Shown here: piece by piece, positions 8,893-63,897 of the stretch
Position numbering within the stretch: position 1 is the first letter of the stretch
Layout: every line of letters begins with the position of its first letter
Origin: Nitrososphaeria archaeon
GTDB lineage: Archaea > Thermoproteota > Nitrososphaeria > JACIWG01
Direction of reading: 5' to 3'
Assembly (NCBI GenBank): GCA_963752255.1
Contig: CAVVXT010000019.1
Location: 544,635-608,634 of the forward strand
DNA: 64,000 bases
Notes under the pieces: generated by a model
What the model was told of the DNA's origin: nothing
Database searches by the model: none
Seen by the model: the letters and a program-made list of their open reading frames with translations, nothing else
Made by a program: the position numbers and the translations under genes

Positions 8893-9435
8893 GTGGTTAT
8901 GGGGCAGGAAACAAGACTTTCTGGAAAGTTAAAATTAAATCGTATTGTCATTGAAAATTTTGATGATGCCCAAGAACTTTACCAGAGTGGATTTGGAGAA
9001 AAGGAAAGGAAGAGTCTTGTGTTGAACCCCTATGAAGCGCTCTATCTTTGCAGCATTAATAGGGTTGACGTGATTGGAAAGAAGAAGATCATAAACTTTG
9101 AAAATTTAATAGGCATACTCTACAATAAAGATAAGGAAATTCTAACCAGATTTCTAGTCTATAGGGACCTGAGGAGCAGAGGTTTTATTGTCAAAGAAGG
9201 CTTCGGTTTCGGGGTTGACTTTAGGGTCTACGATAAAGGGGAATATGGTAAAAAGACAGCAAAATATGTCGTCTTCGTTTTAAATGAAGGAAATGATGTT
9301 AGATTTGAGAAGATCGTACAGGATGCTATCGATATTAAAAGGATGGGGAAGAAATCTATCATGGCAGTTATAGATAGAAGGGGAGAAGTGATATATTATC
9401 AGATATCTGAGGCGGTCTTTAATGCAGAAAGTTAG
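8893..9435 (+). CDS. endA: tRNA splicing endonuclease subunit (probably structural/beta subunit)
   Basis: EALYL, FLVYRDLRSRGF, FGVDFRVY motifs; the catalytic His expected after the Tyr is not seen. Confidence 0.85.
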   Translation: MVMGQETRLSGKLKLNRIVIENFDDAQELYQSGFGEKERKSLVLNPYEALYLCSINRVDVIGKKKIINFENLIGILYNKDKEILTRFLVYRDLRSRGFIVKEGFGFGVDFRVYDKGEYGKKTAKYVVFVLNEGNDVRFEKIVQDAIDIKRMGKKSIMAVIDRRGEVIYYQISEAVFNAES

Positions 9436-15686: not shown

Positions 15687-16658
15687 TTGAAAATACTAGT
15701 CAAGCCACTATGCGCTGAAAGCCTAGGAGTCAGGTCTACCTCAACATATGTAGAAACACCTGATATCAAAGTTCTAATAGATGCGGGTGCAGCTCTAGGT
15801 CCAAGGAATGGTTTACTCCCCCATACATTAGAATATAAGGCTCTAGGAGAGGCTAAGAAAAAGATAGCTTATTACGCAGCAAAAAGTGATGTGGTAGTCA
15901 TTTCCCATTATCATTATGATCATTTCTCACCGTTTTTCAGCACTTTGGACACTAAGTGGACCTGGTGCGACAAGAAAGTGGCAGAGGAAGTGTATTCAAA
16001 CAAAATAGTATACATCAAGGATTTTAAGTCCTCCATCAATTATAGTCAGAAAGGAAGGGGATGGATCTTCTCTAAATTACTCAAAAATGTTGCCAAAATT
16101 GTTTACATAGCAGATGGCAGGAGTTTTTACTATGGAGGAACTACGATCCAATTCAGTGAACCACTGTATCATGGAGAAGAGGGCAGCAAACTAGGATATG
16201 TTCTAGCAACAATATTCAGAAGTAGAGACTTAACTTTTATACACGCATCAGACGTCCAAGGTCCAATATCGAATAAAACGCTTGACTTTATTTTAAAGGA
16301 GAAACCCGATGTCTTAATTATAGGGGGACCACCAACTTACCTAAGCAACGTAAATGAAGAAAATATTGAGCAGGCGAAAAGAAATCTCAGTAGACTTGTA
16401 GAAGGGACGAAGCTGATGATACTTGACCATCACCTCCTAAGAGACCTTAGAACATTAGACTTTGTAAGAGAATTAAACAGGAAGGCTAAAAAATTTGGAA
16501 ACAGAGTGCAAACCTTTGCGGAATATCAAGATAAGCCAAACCTACTGCTGGAGGCAAAGCGTGAAGAACTTTATCAAAATGAAAGACCAAGCGAAGAATT
16601 TATGAGATGGACTAAACTTCCTTTGGAGGCTCAGAAGGCGACTCTTCCTCCTGTTTAG
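15687..16658 (+). CDS. MBL-fold metallo-hydrolase (UPF0282)
   Basis: ESLGVRS, ISHYHYDH, HASDVQGP, LDHHLLRD. Confidence 0.85.
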   Translation: MKILVKPLCAESLGVRSTSTYVETPDIKVLIDAGAALGPRNGLLPHTLEYKALGEAKKKIAYYAAKSDVVVISHYHYDHFSPFFSTLDTKWTWCDKKVAEEVYSNKIVYIKDFKSSINYSQKGRGWIFSKLLKNVAKIVYIADGRSFYYGGTTIQFSEPLYHGEEGSKLGYVLATIFRSRDLTFIHASDVQGPISNKTLDFILKEKPDVLIIGGPPTYLSNVNEENIEQAKRNLSRLVEGTKLMILDHHLLRDLRTLDFVRELNRKAKKFGNRVQTFAEYQDKPNLLLEAKREELYQNERPSEEFMRWTKLPLEAQKATLPPV

Positions 16659-17192: not shown

Positions 17193-19416
17193 TCATTCTT
17201 TGTCGATGAACTCATCCGGTGTAGGTGGCGTTTCGCTTAGACCCTTCCTCTTCCTTATTGATACGATTAACTGCGGCAATAGACTTTGGGGAACTATATT
17301 CCATTCTTTGAAATGAGTATTCCACATAGCTTTCCCTGCCGTAGCTCCCCTCATAGCTTCACTAAGATCGAATGTTTCAGATGCAGGAATTACGCCCTCG
17401 ATTATCGTCAGAATACCCTTTTGTTGGACGTCAAGCATTCTTCCTCTTCTACCTGAAATAACACCTGCGATAGCACCTATAAGATCGCTGCTTCCTTTGA
17501 CTTCGATACCTAATATCGGTTCGAGAAGCGTTGGATTCGCTAGAAGCATTGCACCCAATATTGCACCTCTAGAAGCCGGTAGAAGCTGTGCATATGTTCT
17601 ATGTGCTGAATCCTCGTGAAATTCTGCGTGATGAAGTATAACTTTAATGCCTCTACACGCTTCCTGCGCTAAAGGACCATTCTCCATCACATCCGAAAAG
17701 CCAACCTTTATCGAATCTATTGACTCTTGCATGAATTGCACACCCTTAGTTGCGTCAACGAATAAGTTTCCTTTGTTATCAACTGAAACAACATTCCTCG
17801 CTTCATCTGCGTCCCAGCCGTGCTCTCTTAATATTTTGGCCACCGTCTTTTTATCAAGTTGTTCGTTAATTGTATTATTCCTGATTAATTCAATTATTTC
17901 GGGGGTAAGGGGTTCTACTTTCATGAAGATGCGGTTATGTTTATTAGGTGATTTGGACATGATTGGACCTGCTGAACTTCTGATTGTCTCACGATAGTTA
18001 ATCAAAGGTTCAGTCGTCACAATTTCGAGTCCTGCCTGTTGTATGAGAGTGGTTGCGATTTCAAGATGTAATACACCCATACCGGCCATCAGCATTTCTC
18101 CTGTTTCTTCATTGATCTTGACGACGAGGTTTGGGTCTTCGATAGAGATTCTTCTTAGGGTATCAATCAATTTAGGTAGATCACGCGGAAACTTTGGCTC
18201 AACAGCAATTGTGACAACAGGTTCGGAAACGTATTTTATCACCTCAAATGGTGTTACATCTTTGACTGAGGAAACCGTTTCTCCTGACCTGGCGGCGTCC
18301 AGTCCTAGCAGAGCAGGTATATTACCACAACCCATGAAACCTACGAGTTCTCTAAAAGGACCCATGAACATGTTAACCGATTGTATCCTCGCTTGAGTCT
18401 TAGCGTCGTGCAGGTATACTACATCACCATCATGAACTGTTCCAGAGAACAGCCTTCCAACGGCGACGACTCCGGCTTGAGGGTCAACTACAACGTTTGT
18501 AACCATCATTACGACTGGACCCTTTTCATCACAGTTAACCAACGATTGACCGATTTCAGAATTCGGGTCACCCTTCCATATTTTTGGAATACGATATCGT
18601 TGAGCGACGTGTGGAGGTGGGTGATGTTTAATAACCATTGAAAGAATGGCTTCGTGCAACGGAAAATTTTCCGAGAGAGTTTTCATGTCACCTTCTTCAT
18701 AAGCCTTGTAGATATCGCTGAATTTTACACTTTTCTTCTGAGTGGTCGTAAAGTTGAAGCCCCATCTGTCTTTTGCTGAACCAAAAGCGACGCTGCTATC
18801 TTGTATGCTAACCTTCCACTTATCTTTATATTCGGGCTCAGCATAAATATCAATCAGATTATTAAAATCGTTAACAATGTCCCCAAGCCAAGCCTGCATC
18901 TTTTCAGGTGAAAGCTTAAGTTCCTTGATTAACCGATCAATCTTATTAATATAAAGTACAGGACGAACCCTCTCTTCTAAAGCCTGCCTAGTAACGGTTT
19001 CAGTCTGCGTCATCACACCTTCAACTGCATCTGAAACTACAACAACACCATCGATCGCGCGCAAACTTCTCGTAACTCTACCGGTAAAGTCGATGTGACC
19101 AGGTGTATCAATAAGGTTAATAACATATGGAACGTTGTCTTGCTCATAGTAAAGTGTGACGTTTGCTGCTTTGATGGTCATCTGCCTTTGCTGTTCCAAG
19201 TCCATATAATCCAGAGCTAGCGCTTGCCCAGCGAGGGAAGGATTGAGCATACCGCATGCGGCGAGGAGGCTATCGCTCATCGTCGTTTTACCGTGGTCTA
19301 CGTGAGCAACAACGCCCAGATAATTCGGGCTAGAATTGTTATTTCTAGGCCTTTCGAATCTGGTCTTTGTTGCCTATAATCTTTAATGCTTCCGTTGTAG
19401 ACTTATATCTTGGCAT
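17193..19416 (-). CDS. fusA: Elongation factor EF-2, two exons (19416-19353 and 19321-17193), 730 aa when spliced
   Basis: MPRYKSTTEALKIIGNKDQIR in exon 1; N-LGVVAHVDHGKTT, DTPGH, NKID and the diphthamide loop HEDSAHR in exon 2. Confidence 0.95.
19322..19352 (-). other. 31-nt bulge-helix-bulge intron in EF-2 mRNA
   Basis: CCAGA-TTCG-AA^A-GGC...GCC-CGAA-TT^A-TCTGG; excision gives CGA AAT CTG GGC (R-N-L-G) in frame. Confidence 0.88.
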
Positions 19417-19470
19417 AGTAAATCATACACTAAACCACTAAACAGATACTTTTAAAAGATTTTGGTAAAT

Positions 19471-48352: not shown

Positions 48353-51163
48353 ATGAATACAAAAGAGTCTTTCATAGATTCCGAGATTTACAGGTTTCTA
48401 AAGAACATTATAGATAAGGGGTTTGAACATAAAAACGTAATATACAAAGACGTAAAGTTTCATTTTCCTGCTGATGGTGGTGAAGCCGATATTGTTGTAT
48501 TTGGAGAAAAAGACGGCAAACCTGTAAAACTTATTATAGAGACAAAGAAGAAAGCTGTCAAATACTCTGAAAAAATAGACCCATATAGTGTTACAGTATA
48601 TGGTCAAGCTTCTGGATATGCAGCAGCTTTGGATGCTCAATTCCTTGCCACTACAAATGGAGATATTCTTGTTCTTTTTGATTCCTATAAAAAAGGAACA
48701 ATTTTGGAAAGGCAGATAGGGGATGCTTACAAGATTAAATATAGCGATGATTTTTTCAAGCAGTTTCTAAGGGGTATATCAGATTATCTGTCAGGTGATT
48801 TGAAATCCTTACCTTTAGGGGATGCATTTGTTGGAAGGCTAAAGTATTTCCATGAACTTCTAATAAGTTCGTCGGTTGATGCACTAAAGGGTAAACTTGA
48901 TAGAAATGCAAAGTTTCGTGAAGAGTATAAAAACTGGATAGAGGAACAGGGACTTAGATATAACAACAAGACACATGAAAACATATCAAAGCAATTCGCA
49001 TACCTTTTGATGAATAGGGTTTTATTTTACAAGACCTTAGAAGTAAGGAGAAAAGACCTAAAGTTAACACCAATTAAATATGAAGAAGATTTTAATCCAG
49101 AAAGCTTTATTAGGTCACTAAGGAGATGCTTTGAAGAAATTGTTACAAACGTTGATTATGAGGCTGTTTTCAAGTATGCAGTGATATTGGATGACATTCC
49201 AATTCTACCAGCTCTATCGGAATATTTAAATGATTTCGTTAAAGATATAGAACAGTATAATCTATCAGGAATAAAGAGAGATGTTATAGGTCATGTATAC
49301 GAGAAGTTGATTCCACCAGACGAAAGAAAGAAACTTGGTCAGTTTTATACTCCTCCGATAATATGTGACCTTATAGCCAAATTCTGCATAGATTCTCCTG
49401 ATGCAAAGGTTTTAGATCCTTCTTGTGGTTCAGGCGGCTTCTTATTGAGTGCATATTCAAGGTTGCTTGACTTGATGAATAAAGAGGAATCAGACGATAA
49501 GATACATAATAAAATATTAGGCAATATTTATGGCGTAGACATAAATCAATTTGCCGCTCACCTATCTGTCATAAACTTATCAATAAAGAATCTGGATGCT
49601 CATACCGATTTAGTAAATGTTATAGCAAGCGACTTCTTTAAAGTACCAGCAAGACAGGCTACACTCACACCGCATAAGAGGCTCTCTATAAGAGGTTCAG
49701 AAGGAGTTTACATAGCTTTACCAAGTTTTGATTCTATAATTGCGAATCCTCCTTATACAAGGCAAGACGACATAGGAAACAAGAAATACATAGACTTTAT
49801 ACAGGGCGTTTCGCTTACTTTCAATGGCAAAAAATTAGACTTTAGTACAGAAGCAGGAATATACTCTTACTTTTTTACACATTCAACTCATTTCCTTAAG
49901 GAAAATGGAATGATGGGCTTTATTGTTTCTAACTCATGGATGGATGTTAACTTTGGTAAAGATTTGCAAAGGTTTTTCTTAGAAAATTTTAAAATCAAAT
50001 GCATAATAGACTTTGATAAGAGGTCATTTGCCGAAGCAGCAGTTAATACAGTAATTATAATTCTACAAAAAATAACAGGAAAGGAGAACAAAAAAGAAAG
50101 AGACGAAAATAAAGTTAAGTTTGTAAGAGTTAAGAAACGTCTAGCTATAGATAAAATAATAGATATTATTAATATCACAAAGGAATCTTATGAAGATGAA
50201 ATAGCAAGATTTGTTCTAATTGACCAAAGAAGTCTTTATGAAAATAATAAATGGGGAGTTTATCTAAAAGCTCCTGAACTATACTTCAAGATTATTAAAA
50301 ATAAAAAAATTACAAAGTTAAAGGAAATCGCTAAGGTTGGTGTTGGCATTGTAACTTTAGCAAACGATTTTTTCATTATACCAAAAGATAAAGCTAAACA
50401 GTTGGGAATAGAAGCAAAATTTCTTAGACCATCTATAGAACCTAGAGGAATAAAATTCTTGGATATTCAAAAAACTGACACAACTAATTATATGTTATTG
50501 GTGAATGAAAAGAAAAATGAACTTGAAGGAACAAACGTATTAAAATATATAAATTACGGCGAACTCAAAGACATAGAAATTACTAGAGGTTCAACTAAAG
50601 GTAAGGTTGTGAAAGGATACCAGAACCTTCCCGCTCTAAGCACAAGAAAGATATGGTACGCTCTTGGCGAGTTAAAACCGGGAGAAATAATTTTACCTAG
50701 AATAATATGGCAGAGATGGTATGCTGCTTGGAATAAAGATTCAGTATATTCGCCACATACTTTATACTGGTGTTATCCAAACAACAAAGAAGACACGCTG
50801 TCATTGTTAGGTATTTTAAACTCTAGCCTAATTGCATTATTTATAGAAATTACAGGGCAGACAATGTTAGGTGAAGGCGCTTTAGGATTAATGAAGCATG
50901 ACTTTGATGAAGTGCCTATTCTAAATCCTGACATGCTTTCTAAAGCAGAAAAAGAAAAAATAGAAAACTTGTTTTTAGAAATATGCAAAGCTAAAAGGAA
51001 TAATGATGAAAAATCTGAAGAAAGAATAAGATATGAACTTGATGATTATATATTTAACATATTGAAGTTGTTAGATAAAGAGAAAAAGCAGGTCCTATAT
51101 AGTCTTAATGAACTAAGAGAATTGAGAAAGAGTAAAAAAGAAACAAAGGTCTTAATTGACTAA
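48353..51163 (+). CDS. Fused restriction endonuclease / N6-adenine methyltransferase (Type IIG-like)
   Basis: N-terminal EADIVVF...IIETK nuclease and ATTNG; LGQFYTP, LDPSCGSGGF, NPPY; C-terminal target-recognition-like region (LGILNS). Confidence 0.9.
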   Translation: MNTKESFIDSEIYRFLKNIIDKGFEHKNVIYKDVKFHFPADGGEADIVVFGEKDGKPVKLIIETKKKAVKYSEKIDPYSVTVYGQASGYAAALDAQFLATTNGDILVLFDSYKKGTILERQIGDAYKIKYSDDFFKQFLRGISDYLSGDLKSLPLGDAFVGRLKYFHELLISSSVDALKGKLDRNAKFREEYKNWIEEQGLRYNNKTHENISKQFAYLLMNRVLFYKTLEVRRKDLKLTPIKYEEDFNPESFIRSLRRCFEEIVTNVDYEAVFKYAVILDDIPILPALSEYLNDFVKDIEQYNLSGIKRDVIGHVYEKLIPPDERKKLGQFYTPPIICDLIAKFCIDSPDAKVLDPSCGSGGFLLSAYSRLLDLMNKEESDDKIHNKILGNIYGVDINQFAAHLSVINLSIKNLDAHTDLVNVIASDFFKVPARQATLTPHKRLSIRGSEGVYIALPSFDSIIANPPYTRQDDIGNKKYIDFIQGVSLTFNGKKLDFSTEAGIYSYFFTHSTHFLKENGMMGFIVSNSWMDVNFGKDLQRFFLENFKIKCIIDFDKRSFAEAAVNTVIIILQKITGKENKKERDENKVKFVRVKKRLAIDKIIDIINITKESYEDEIARFVLIDQRSLYENNKWGVYLKAPELYFKIIKNKKITKLKEIAKVGVGIVTLANDFFIIPKDKAKQLGIEAKFLRPSIEPRGIKFLDIQKTDTTNYMLLVNEKKNELEGTNVLKYINYGELKDIEITRGSTKGKVVKGYQNLPALSTRKIWYALGELKPGEIILPRIIWQRWYAAWNKDSVYSPHTLYWCYPNNKEDTLSLLGILNSSLIALFIEITGQTMLGEGALGLMKHDFDEVPILNPDMLSKAEKEKIENLFLEICKAKRNNDEKSEERIRYELDDYIFNILKLLDKEKKQVLYSLNELRELRKSKKETKVLID

Positions 51164-51461
51164 GGTAAATAGTATGACAGATATAATAGTTGAAGAATGC
51201 CCATATTGTAAACAAAAAACAATAAATGTTATGCATAAAGAAGGCAGTTTTAGTGCCGAAAGAACAAGATGTAGAGCTGGTAGAAGTACGAAATATGTTA
51301 AGCATCCTGATAAATTTAAAATTCTAATAGAAAAATGTCCTAACTGTGGCAAATCCAAGAAAGAGATAGAGCAAGCAATGAAACATGGTAAAGAGCTTTC
51401 TAATGATGAGGTTCTTACTAGACTTAGAGAAGCTGGTTTAGATCCAGCAAAGTTAAAATGA
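51156..51461 (+). CDS. Small zinc-ribbon protein
   Basis: CPYC...CPNCG; overlaps the R-M gene stop. Confidence 0.7.
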   Translation: MTKVNSMTDIIVEECPYCKQKTINVMHKEGSFSAERTRCRAGRSTKYVKHPDKFKILIEKCPNCGKSKKEIEQAMKHGKELSNDEVLTRLREAGLDPAKLK

Positions 51462-53460: not shown

Positions 53461-53993
53461 GTTCAAATGTTCAAACGTCTGTTCACCAAACAGCAAAAAA
53501 GTTTTTTGCTATATATAGAGGAACCTGCCTGTTTTCCTAAGGAATACTGGGGTTTATTGGGGGATCCGCTATAATAGGGACGGACGTTTTTCCTGTTTGG
53601 AGATCGGACTAAGGATTCTAAACAGGCTCAGATAATTAATTTATACGCTGAATGTAAAAGTTTTTAGAAAGAAGATCACAAAGAACTCTAAGTTAGCGAA
53701 TCCCTTTACAATCAAGGTTAGAGACGACAAGACAGCGGAGGAATACACGATCGAGACATAGATAGGTGGCTCAACCGCATATAGGGCGAAATTTTACTAA
53801 ACCTATTTAGCATAAATTGGAGCCTCCTTCAGTTAATATCATCATCAGTGATGTGCCAACATAAAGATTTGGTAAAGGTTATGCTTCAAATGGAAAGGAA
53901 GAACGCTTAAAATTCGAGCAGATTTGGGATTTTGGGCACAAGTTAACATCAAGTTTTTGGGGGTTTGTGCTCATGCCCAGAAACCGCTCAAAA

Positions 53994-63807: not shown

Positions 63808-63897
63808 GGCCTCCGTGGTGTAGTGGTAGCATAATGGCCTGTGGAGCCGTGGGCTCGGGTTCGACAAATTAAACGTTCGAAAATCCCGACGGAGGCC
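63808..63897 (+). tRNA. tRNA-His(GTG) with encoded G-1 and an 18-nt intron at 59/60 (63866-63883)
   Basis: GCCTCCG/CGGAGGC acceptor, ATGGC-CTGTGGA-GCCGT anticodon arm; T arm TCGGG-TTCG-AC^A-AAT...GTT-CGAA-AA^T-CCCGA is a canonical BHB. Confidence 0.93.

Follow-up and report, generated by a model that had tools for sequence, protein, structure and literature searches.

A probable bulge-helix-bulge intron in the elongation factor 2 gene of a family of Nitrososphaeria archaea, at a site resembling a tRNA T arm

An interrupted EF-2 gene

The gene for archaeal elongation factor 2 (aEF-2, here EF-2) that is the subject of this study lies on the minus strand of a 64,000-nt stretch of the genome of a soil archaeon of the Nitrososphaeria (the window; G000:C19:544635-608634). 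The source assembly, a 2.1-Mb archaeal genome of 41% G+C in 19 contigs, is labelled G000 here and belongs to family f1. Most of the gene is found in a 726-codon open frame (17193-19373), which matches TIGR00490 with 841 bits, over profile positions 22-718 only and from a Leu codon at 19319 on. Profile positions 1-21, missing from this part of the gene, sit 31 nt upstream in a different frame. There, a short frame starting with the ATG at 19416-19414 reads MPRYKSTTEALKIIGNKDQIRKA followed by a stop codon, and the first 21 residues of this frame align collinearly with the N-terminal ends of orthologues that lack the intron. Removal of the intervening nucleotides joins ...IR(N) to LGVVAHVDHGKTT and restores the IRN-(L)G-AHVDHGKT frame, which is likewise collinear with the intron-less orthologues. 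The length of the insert, 31 nt, is no multiple of 3, and the exon-1 frame runs into a TAG after 3 codons. The long frame alone should be unable to yield a working GTPase, because the first in-frame ATG, GTG or TTG of exon 2, read by eye, is located 3' of the P-loop. A second full-length EF-2 was looked for in G000 and not found, the next match having E = 3.9e-6. We consider it very probable that the insert represents a bulge-helix-bulge (BHB) intron removed by splicing, the splicing itself being predicted from the sequence. The features of the locus and the window are collected in Table 1.

Table 1. Features of the EF-2 locus and other features of the window (positions of the window)
Feature	Position	Strand	Remarks
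EF-2 exon 1	19353..19416	-	64 nt: ATG, 21 codons and the first base of the Asn codon (MPRYKSTTEALKIIGNKDQIR-N)
Predicted BHB intron of EF-2	19322..19352	-	31 nt; placed by the BHB cleavage rule
EF-2 exon 2, including stop codon	17193..19321	-	exon 1 and exon 2 together: 730 codons
Outer (exon) helix, 5' strand CCAGA	19359..19363	-	
Outer (exon) helix, 3' strand UCUGG	19316..19320	-	shares bases with the Leu codon found in place of Phe
Central 4-bp helix, exon strand UUCG	19355..19358	-	centroid fold
Central 4-bp helix, intron strand CGAA	19324..19327	-	centroid fold
3-nt bulges on opposite strands	19352-19354 and 19321-19323	-	
Inner intron hairpin	19328..19351	-	2 bp, 1-nt bulge, 6 bp, 7-nt loop
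Extended exon helix, 5' strand, 8 nt	19367..19374	-	RNAfold
Extended exon helix, 3' strand, 8 nt	19305..19312	-	RNAfold
Candidate TATA-like box	19450..19457	-	~37 nt upstream of the EF-2 ATG; conserved in the family by eye
Match to EndA catalytic domain	9142..9396	+	PF01974, 80.5 bits; contig C12 has the other copy
tRNA-His(GUG) with G-1	63808..63897	+	18-nt intron at 63866-63883, in the T loop (59/60)

A BHB motif at the insert

In the EF-2 pre-mRNA, exon and intron bases would together build, over the 48 nt of 19316-19363, a helix, a 3-nt bulge, a 4-bp helix, a second 3-nt bulge and a further helix. The parts of this motif and the 31-nt intron string are exactly those given in the preliminary description of the window. 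The strict definition of a BHB, two opposed 3-nt bulges with a 4-bp helix between them, describes the EF-2 site in 9/9 sequences of family f1; the sites in three sequences from a second family, f11, have a relaxed motif with a 4-nt 3' bulge or a G.U register. Helices on both sides, which make the motif an hBHBh', are present as well: the outer helix has 5 bp and the inner helix 2+6 bp in G000, and 3-5 contiguous bp of outer helix are found across the family. The inner helix is retained in relatives with differing sequences and registers. The 81-nt region of the intron folds with -27.6 kcal/mol (z = -4.66), none of 200 shuffles being as good, and the centroid structure shows the BHB. Cleavage after the second base of each bulge predicts the frame-restoring product IRN-LGVVAHVDHGKTT. 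Judging from the known biochemistry of the enzyme family, the tRNA-splicing endonuclease would cut in both bulges, and RtcB would then ligate the exons, restoring the Asn codon and the frame just upstream of the P-loop. PF01974 (EndA) is matched twice in G000 (100.5 and 80.5 bits), by proteins of ~185 codons, and two EndA genes fit a broad-specificity two-subunit splicing endonuclease. RtcB ligase is also encoded in G000 (PF01139, 563.9 bits). The EndA gene in the window is ~10 kb from the EF-2 gene.

Joining of open frames across the candidates of a strict BHB scan of G000 gave 3,614 loose and 354 better candidates for a second mRNA intron, which were judged to be noise without homology data and were not followed. 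Of the 22 with a UUCRA site, a context named in the preliminary description, EF-2 alone was convincing. The absence of further mRNA introns in G000 is therefore not established.

Conservation of the intron

In a first sample of 41 genomes, we could read 26 of the 30 EF-2 loci, the other four being three intein-bearing genes and one partial gene. Short EF-2 open frames (713-726 codons) are confined to family f1 in this sample, with at least 731 codons elsewhere. Among the loci read, seven f1 genomes have an insert at the same codon, and the gene is continuous in the remaining 19. A covariance model of the EF-2 intron site (R1), which scores the G000 intron with 71.3 bits, finds the intron in nine of the ten genomes of f1, a family that makes up the whole order. 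The tenth genome, G005, is a 76% complete assembly without an EF-2 gene, and thus the intron is present in 9/9 of the genomes that hold the 5' end of EF-2. Run over 151 genomes of the class, R1 detects it in eight of the nine f1 genomes besides G000 and in all three genomes of f11 (42-44 bits, E about 1e-9); with stricter filters it was not found in 138 other searched genomes. The f11 matches are EF-2 genes interrupted at the same codon by introns of 37-42 nt, which agree with the f1 introns in the first three and the last ~seven bases. Across the 12 genomes the length of the intron varies from 26 to 42 nt, and every sequence folds into the motif. Three of the lengths are multiples of 3, and an in-frame stop was read by eye in all three. 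In an alignment of seven sequences, 94.6% of the helix cells pair and two pairs have double changes, most pairs being invariant. Furthermore, metagenome contigs from four runs in four studies, one of them possibly the source sample, carry the intron without gap or joint. Taken together, the comparisons indicate that the EF-2 intron is old and ancestral to family f1. The intron may have been gained once or twice. The EF-2 tree (28 rows, excluding intein-bearing and partial genes and families f2, f3, f8-f10 and f12) does not join f1 and f11 as sisters (support 88/85), whereas the approximately unbiased (AU) test does not reject f1 + f11 as one clade (p 0.2).

Among the metagenome contigs, variants at 19317 and 19363 hit the outer helix, one breaking a C-G pair and the other making a U.G pair, and the four spanning contigs hold no population variant inside the intron. 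Some matches of R1 were misleading. Two copies in G003 resembled a coding-region BHB, yet the unspliced frame reads through. Matches in G002/G008 and in G006/G009 were rejected, lying in apparently continuous open frames; the G002/G008 one resembles by eye a histidine-kinase ATPase motif. The EF-2 gene of G008 (G008:C2, about 49361-51274) combines the BHB intron with an intein in the P-loop, ~10 codons downstream, and this intein has a LAGLIDADG endonuclease (PF14528, 81.8 bits; PF14890, 35.9 bits). In G010, G035 and G036, the EF-2 open frames have 1324-1372 codons, and the match begins at residue 11.

Introns in the T loop of tRNA genes

The window holds a second predicted intron, in the T loop of a tRNA-His gene (Table 1). 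This gene is missed by ARAGORN and by Rfam at gathering score; below that threshold it gives a partial match of 20.3 bits. Removing 63866-63883 lets ARAGORN call a 73-nt tRNA-His(GUG) whose T loop contains the junction, and a hand parse gives the T stem UCGGG/CCCGA, the loop UUCGAC|U (the bar marks the junction) and the central helix UUCG/CGAA. The 59/60 intron and the central helix shared with EF-2, both named in the preliminary description, are thereby borne out, as is its remark that the two intron interiors are unlike in length (31 vs 18 nt) and sequence (local score 8). Our census of G000 comprises 49 tRNAs, 46 called by ARAGORN and three that need the removal of a non-canonical intron. 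Besides tRNA-His, the latter include a tRNA-CAT (anticodon CAU; G000:C14, about 53709-53830), also missed by ARAGORN, with a 13-nt T-loop intron and a second non-canonical intron that follows the 5' strand of the acceptor. The third is tRNA-Leu(UAA) (G000:C7, about 15739-15811), found only after excising ~22-24 nt in the D-arm region, the boundaries being approximate. Brute-force intron removal at four further weak tRNA-like places found nothing.

The T-loop intron of tRNA-His and both introns of tRNA-CAT are conserved in all eight f1 genomes with a match to the respective gene (10 searched). The tRNA-His of G014, which belongs to the distant family f6, also has a 59/60 intron; in f11, the tRNA-His of G133 has none. 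Among the 19 tRNA-Gln genes of the ten f1 genomes, only the tRNA-Gln(UUG) of G004 has a T-loop intron, with the junction UUCGAA|A as in EF-2 and with a hairpin that abuts the bulge. All three tRNA species with T-loop introns have G57 loops, a class that accounts for 10/49 tRNAs in G000; the probability of three out of three by chance is ~0.007, a value calculated by hand and post hoc. Several other insertions were noted along the way: the tRNA-CAT of G003 has a third insert, the tRNA-Gln(UUG) of G008, G007 and G002 (genus g2) has an anticodon-loop intron and a different T stem, and the tRNA-Gln(UUG) of f11 appears to carry an insert near the 5' end.

Resemblance of the EF-2 site to a T arm

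As the preliminary description pointed out, the ligated EF-2 exons can be drawn as a 5-bp stem and a 7-nt loop with the junction between loop nucleotides 6 and 7. Excision of a BHB intron leaves the four central-helix nucleotides and two bulge nucleotides on one side of the junction and one bulge nucleotide on the other, that is, a 7-nt loop joined between nucleotides 6 and 7. The stem, the 7-nt loop and the position of the junction are therefore a necessary by-product of BHB cleavage, and this is also why 37/38 and 59/60 are intron sites. Consequently, the equivalence with position 59/60 of tRNA-His, on which the preliminary description had laid weight, carries none. The introns of cbf5 are alike in this respect. 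The cbf5 gene is split or read through stops in many genomes of the phylum sample outside the class that has the EF-2 intron, and we located the intron in 11 of the 12 loci fetched, within the GTL|DP motif; the stem, the 7-nt loop and the junction between nucleotides 6 and 7 are present in all 11. The cbf5 loops are C-rich (CCCUAG|A and similar), and UUCRA occurs in none of the 11. A T-arm-like context had been proposed as a general targeting rule for intron gain in mRNA. Such a general rule finds no support in the site of cbf5, the sole other coding-region BHB intron on record, which is T-loop-like in 0/11. The cbf5 introns are 16-38 nt long and have a C-rich central helix closed by G.U; several of their outer helices have only 0-1 bp by count.

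As regards sequence, the last 11 bases of exon 1 equal stem positions 50-53 and loop positions 54-59 of both tRNA-Gln genes of G000, with one base inserted. Both genes have the T-stem core CCAG/CUGG and the loop UUCGAAU, a T arm that is conserved in f1 (15/19 Gln genes), and the tRNA-Gln(UUG) of f11 has the same stem-loop core. A strict BHB scan of G000 yielded 66,239 candidates, of which 279 have loop nucleotides 1-6 identical to a G000 T loop. At ten distinct sites four stem bases agree as well, in the same or a shifted register; the true EF-2 and tRNA-His introns account for two of these sites. A T-arm likeness as strong as that of EF-2 is thus seen in 8/66,237 chance BHB candidates, or ~1 in 8,000. 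On the other hand, the resemblance is incomplete. The EF-2 site has UUCRA (as UUCGA) at loop positions 1-5 (54-58) but not the G53-C61 closing pair and the pyrimidine at 60, which are replaced by an A-U pair and an A at loop nucleotide 7; in the 46 ARAGORN tRNAs of G000, G stands at the last 5'-stem position in 45 and A at loop nucleotide 7 in one. At minimum energy, the ligated f1 exons fold into a 7-bp stem closed by a 3-nt loop in 6/9 sequences and into the same hairpin with one bulged base in the other three, and the ligated f11 exons fold with an 8-nt loop. No cloverleaf was detected at the EF-2 site by ARAGORN, by Rfam at gathering score or by Rfam at E up to 1. UUCGAA itself is simply what the Ile-Arg-Asn codons AUU-CGA-AAU spell. 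Nor is the CCAGA/UCUGG hairpin kept by intron-less orthologues: UCUGG occurs in 0/19, because all 19 read have Phe there, and a few draw, by eye, a weaker G.U stem with an 8-nt loop. Overall, we infer that EF-2 genuinely matches the T arm of tRNA-Gln, to a degree that chance is unlikely to produce, and that the match may reflect a shared target preference rather than demonstrated descent.

Adaptation of the exons to the motif

The residue that follows IRN is Leu in 9/9 f1 sequences (codon 19317-19319, minus strand) vs Phe in 22/22 others; f11, the second intron-bearing family, keeps Phe (UUU). Both base changes from UUU to CUG convert, by eye, a G.U pair or mismatch into a Watson-Crick pair with exon 1. 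Because both improve the pairing, they are strong evidence of selection on the RNA motif and not of an inherited T stem. The comparison indicates that the 3' half of the "T stem" of EF-2 is derived and secondary, having arisen via the Phe-to-Leu change, and that at this codon the protein sequence has yielded to RNA structure. An 8-bp helix further out, formed by Gly-Asn-Lys and Val-Val-Ala codons, is invariant in the seven aligned f1 sequences and absent, by eye, from intron-less orthologues. After the gain of the intron, the exons would thus have been tuned to the motif both by the Phe-to-Leu change and by this flanking helix.

Origin of the intron

Why an mRNA site and certain T loops should attract the same kind of intron might be explained by the palindrome UUCGAA. 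An insert that repeats the last exon bases (CGAA) would pair with UUCG at once and form the central helix, and G57-type T loops, the recurrent site of non-canonical introns in this lineage, would share the property. In EF-2, tRNA-His and tRNA-Gln, the 3' end of the intron directly repeats, by eye, the last 4-6 exon bases, and since UUCGAA is palindromic, this direct repeat serves at the same time as the complementary strand of the central helix. If palindromic targets are preferred, new BHB introns are predicted to be in excess at palindromic exon sites. On balance, we lean slightly towards the account as a whole, namely a BHB intron in EF-2, a loop geometry forced by the motif and a target preference shared with tRNA. 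Several observations weigh against it. The idea of a palindrome or target duplication is a post-hoc reading of a handful of sites, and central helices that contain G.U and are not repeated are found both in the cbf5 introns and in the tRNA-His of G014. The criterion for chance likeness was set after the match had been seen, with a one-base register slack and the T arm chosen over other arms. The 11-mer occurs four times in G000, the EF-2 copy alone being known to have an intron and the other three not having been inspected. Finally, covariation in the motif is thin: most pairs never vary and the observed score is reached by 37/500 column shuffles, so that the support it lends is modest.

Descent of the EF-2 intron from a tRNA intron of the T loop (59/60), which would have been transferred to a T-arm-mimicking hairpin of an mRNA via reverse splicing and reverse transcription or via DNA-level conversion guided by the exon match, seems to us possible but doubtful. 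The 5' exon end does equal the T-arm half of tRNA-Gln plus one base, which is rare among chance BHBs, and donors existed, since T-loop introns are family-wide in tRNA-His and tRNA-CAT; they occur also in a distant family. The best match of R1 to a real intron outside EF-2 is the tRNA-Gln intron of G004 (22.9 bits, E 0.007 per genome), other T-loop introns scoring 8-15 bits and the few rows that score at least as high as this one being reverse-strand or chance. However, that score owes much to exon parts common to any tRNA-Gln T-loop intron, and the intron in question, the sole one of its kind, is younger than the EF-2 intron, being restricted to one genome. The interior of the EF-2 intron has no similarity to any tRNA intron of G000: in the comparison with ten of them, which the preliminary description had suggested as a check, the best local score of 14 was equalled by 797/2000 shuffles. 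The 3' half of the mimic is secondary, and cbf5 has no T-arm-like context. Thus, from the earlier proposal that T-loop introns spread to T-arm-like mRNA hairpins, the likeness and the recurrence of T-loop introns remain, whereas the unrelated interiors, the 0/11 of cbf5 and the derived 3' stem speak against it. The opposite view, that the site is unrelated to tRNA and its T-arm likeness an accident of the DQIRN codons, is in our judgement rather improbable. Codon drift alone makes the 5' half, as CAGAUUCG(A/U)AA occurs in 3/19 of the intron-less orthologues read, the geometry is forced, G53-C61 and Y60 are unmatched, and the case is a single one judged post hoc. Yet the frequency of such likeness among chance BHB candidates and the unusual concentration of T-loop introns in the lineage speak against mere accident.

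It is also conceivable that transfer went the other way, the old EF-2 intron seeding the young T-loop intron in the tRNA-Gln(UUG) of G004, so that it is the tRNA that mimics the mRNA site. The relative ages would agree with this, the EF-2 intron being ancestral to the family and the Gln intron present in 1/10 genomes; the two sites have the same stem core and the same UUCGAA|A junction, each intron begins with A-G and has a hairpin abutting the bulge, and the same few bases precede CGAA. Nevertheless, the two interiors are of unequal length (23 vs 30 nt), they have few bases in common and these are under structural constraint, and a pattern search of G004 for a second copy, as a donor, within 3 mismatches found only the Gln intron itself. 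We therefore regard this direction as improbable. That there is no intron at all, and that EF-2 is a pseudogene, an assembly error or a case of programmed frameshift or ribosomal bypass, is hardly credible, even though the splicing is a prediction. The same interruption recurs in the 12 genomes of both families and on independent metagenome contigs, the protein sequence of exon 1 is conserved, a stop lies three codons into the insert, the insert varies over 26-42 nt while the BHB is kept, and no other full-length EF-2 was found in the genome. Bypass and frameshift were rejected on these grounds.

A bolder reading, which we put forward with considerable reserve, is that BHB introns cross the boundary between tRNA and mRNA by exon-guided insertion: a T-loop-type intron would have entered the EF-2 site that copies the T arm of tRNA-Gln, and an intron would have moved again in G004 between an EF-2-like site and tRNA-Gln. 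If true, intron gain in archaeal protein genes would have its first targeting rule, namely a palindromic UUCGAA between the arms of an inverted repeat, and EF-2 synthesis would depend on the tRNA-splicing machinery.

Comparison with known systems

The cbf5 pre-mRNA of Crenarchaeota was reportedly described as containing a BHB intron by Watanabe in 2002. As far as the consulted text of Yokobori 2009 (PMC2738675) goes, archaeal pre-mRNA splicing was confirmed for cbf5 alone, and in the consulted text of Schwarz 2020 (PMC7714728) cbf5 is the sole other archaeal mRNA example up to 2020, besides the BHB intron in the 5' untranslated region (UTR) of HVO_1309 in Haloferax. The text of a paper on archaeal EF-2 evolution (PMC6143161), covered by a term search, mentions no intron or intein, and our literature search, with supplements and subscription journals outside its range, found no report of an EF-2 intron. 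Coding-region BHB introns are thus recorded, in the consulted text of these sources (PMC2738675, PMC7714728), for one gene only, and EF-2 would be the second case, in an essential gene and in two families. Given that splicing is predicted, the EF-2 case suggests that an mRNA can depend entirely on the tRNA-splicing enzymes for its production. There is also a practical side, since gene callers that ignore BHB motifs will report a truncated or frameshifted EF-2, a common phylogenetic marker. The change from Phe to Leu offers a concrete, testable example of exons bending to the motif, and the T-arm likeness together with the recurrent T-loop introns is a lead on intron gain, although one case makes no rule.

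The closest counterpart is the crenarchaeal cbf5 intron, which like that of EF-2 is a short coding-region BHB intron whose removal restores the frame, with exons that supply half of the motif and a ligated site consisting of a stem and a 7-nt loop joined between nucleotides 6 and 7. The two differ in the gene concerned, the cbf5 of G000 being uninterrupted (profile positions 5-322, no stop), and in their distribution, as the EF-2 intron occurs in another class of the phylum. The cbf5 site, at GTL|DP, combines a loop rich in C with a central helix that contains G.U and, unlike EF-2, is not T-loop-like in any of the 11 loci. With HVO_1309, EF-2 would share the use of an mRNA as substrate of the splicing endonuclease, predicted in the case of EF-2; according to the consulted text on HVO_1309, that intron lies in the untranslated leader and interrupts no codons. 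The T-loop tRNA introns have in common with EF-2 the central helix UUCG/CGAA (CGAG in the tRNA-CAT of G000), the junction UUCGA(N)|A and A as the first intron base; the same enzyme presumably acts on both, and R1 finds them at 8-23 bits. In contrast to them, EF-2 has an mRNA as host, an A-U closing pair, an A at loop nucleotide 7, an unrelated interior and an additional 8-bp exon helix. Transposition of tRNA introns has been reported in Thermoproteales (Fujishima 2010, as cited in PMC4090602 and in a 2026 preprint). As represented in those citing texts, that case rests on near-identical introns at different sites, a similarity that EF-2 lacks, whereas the notion of landing sites being specified by the BHB requirement is common to both.

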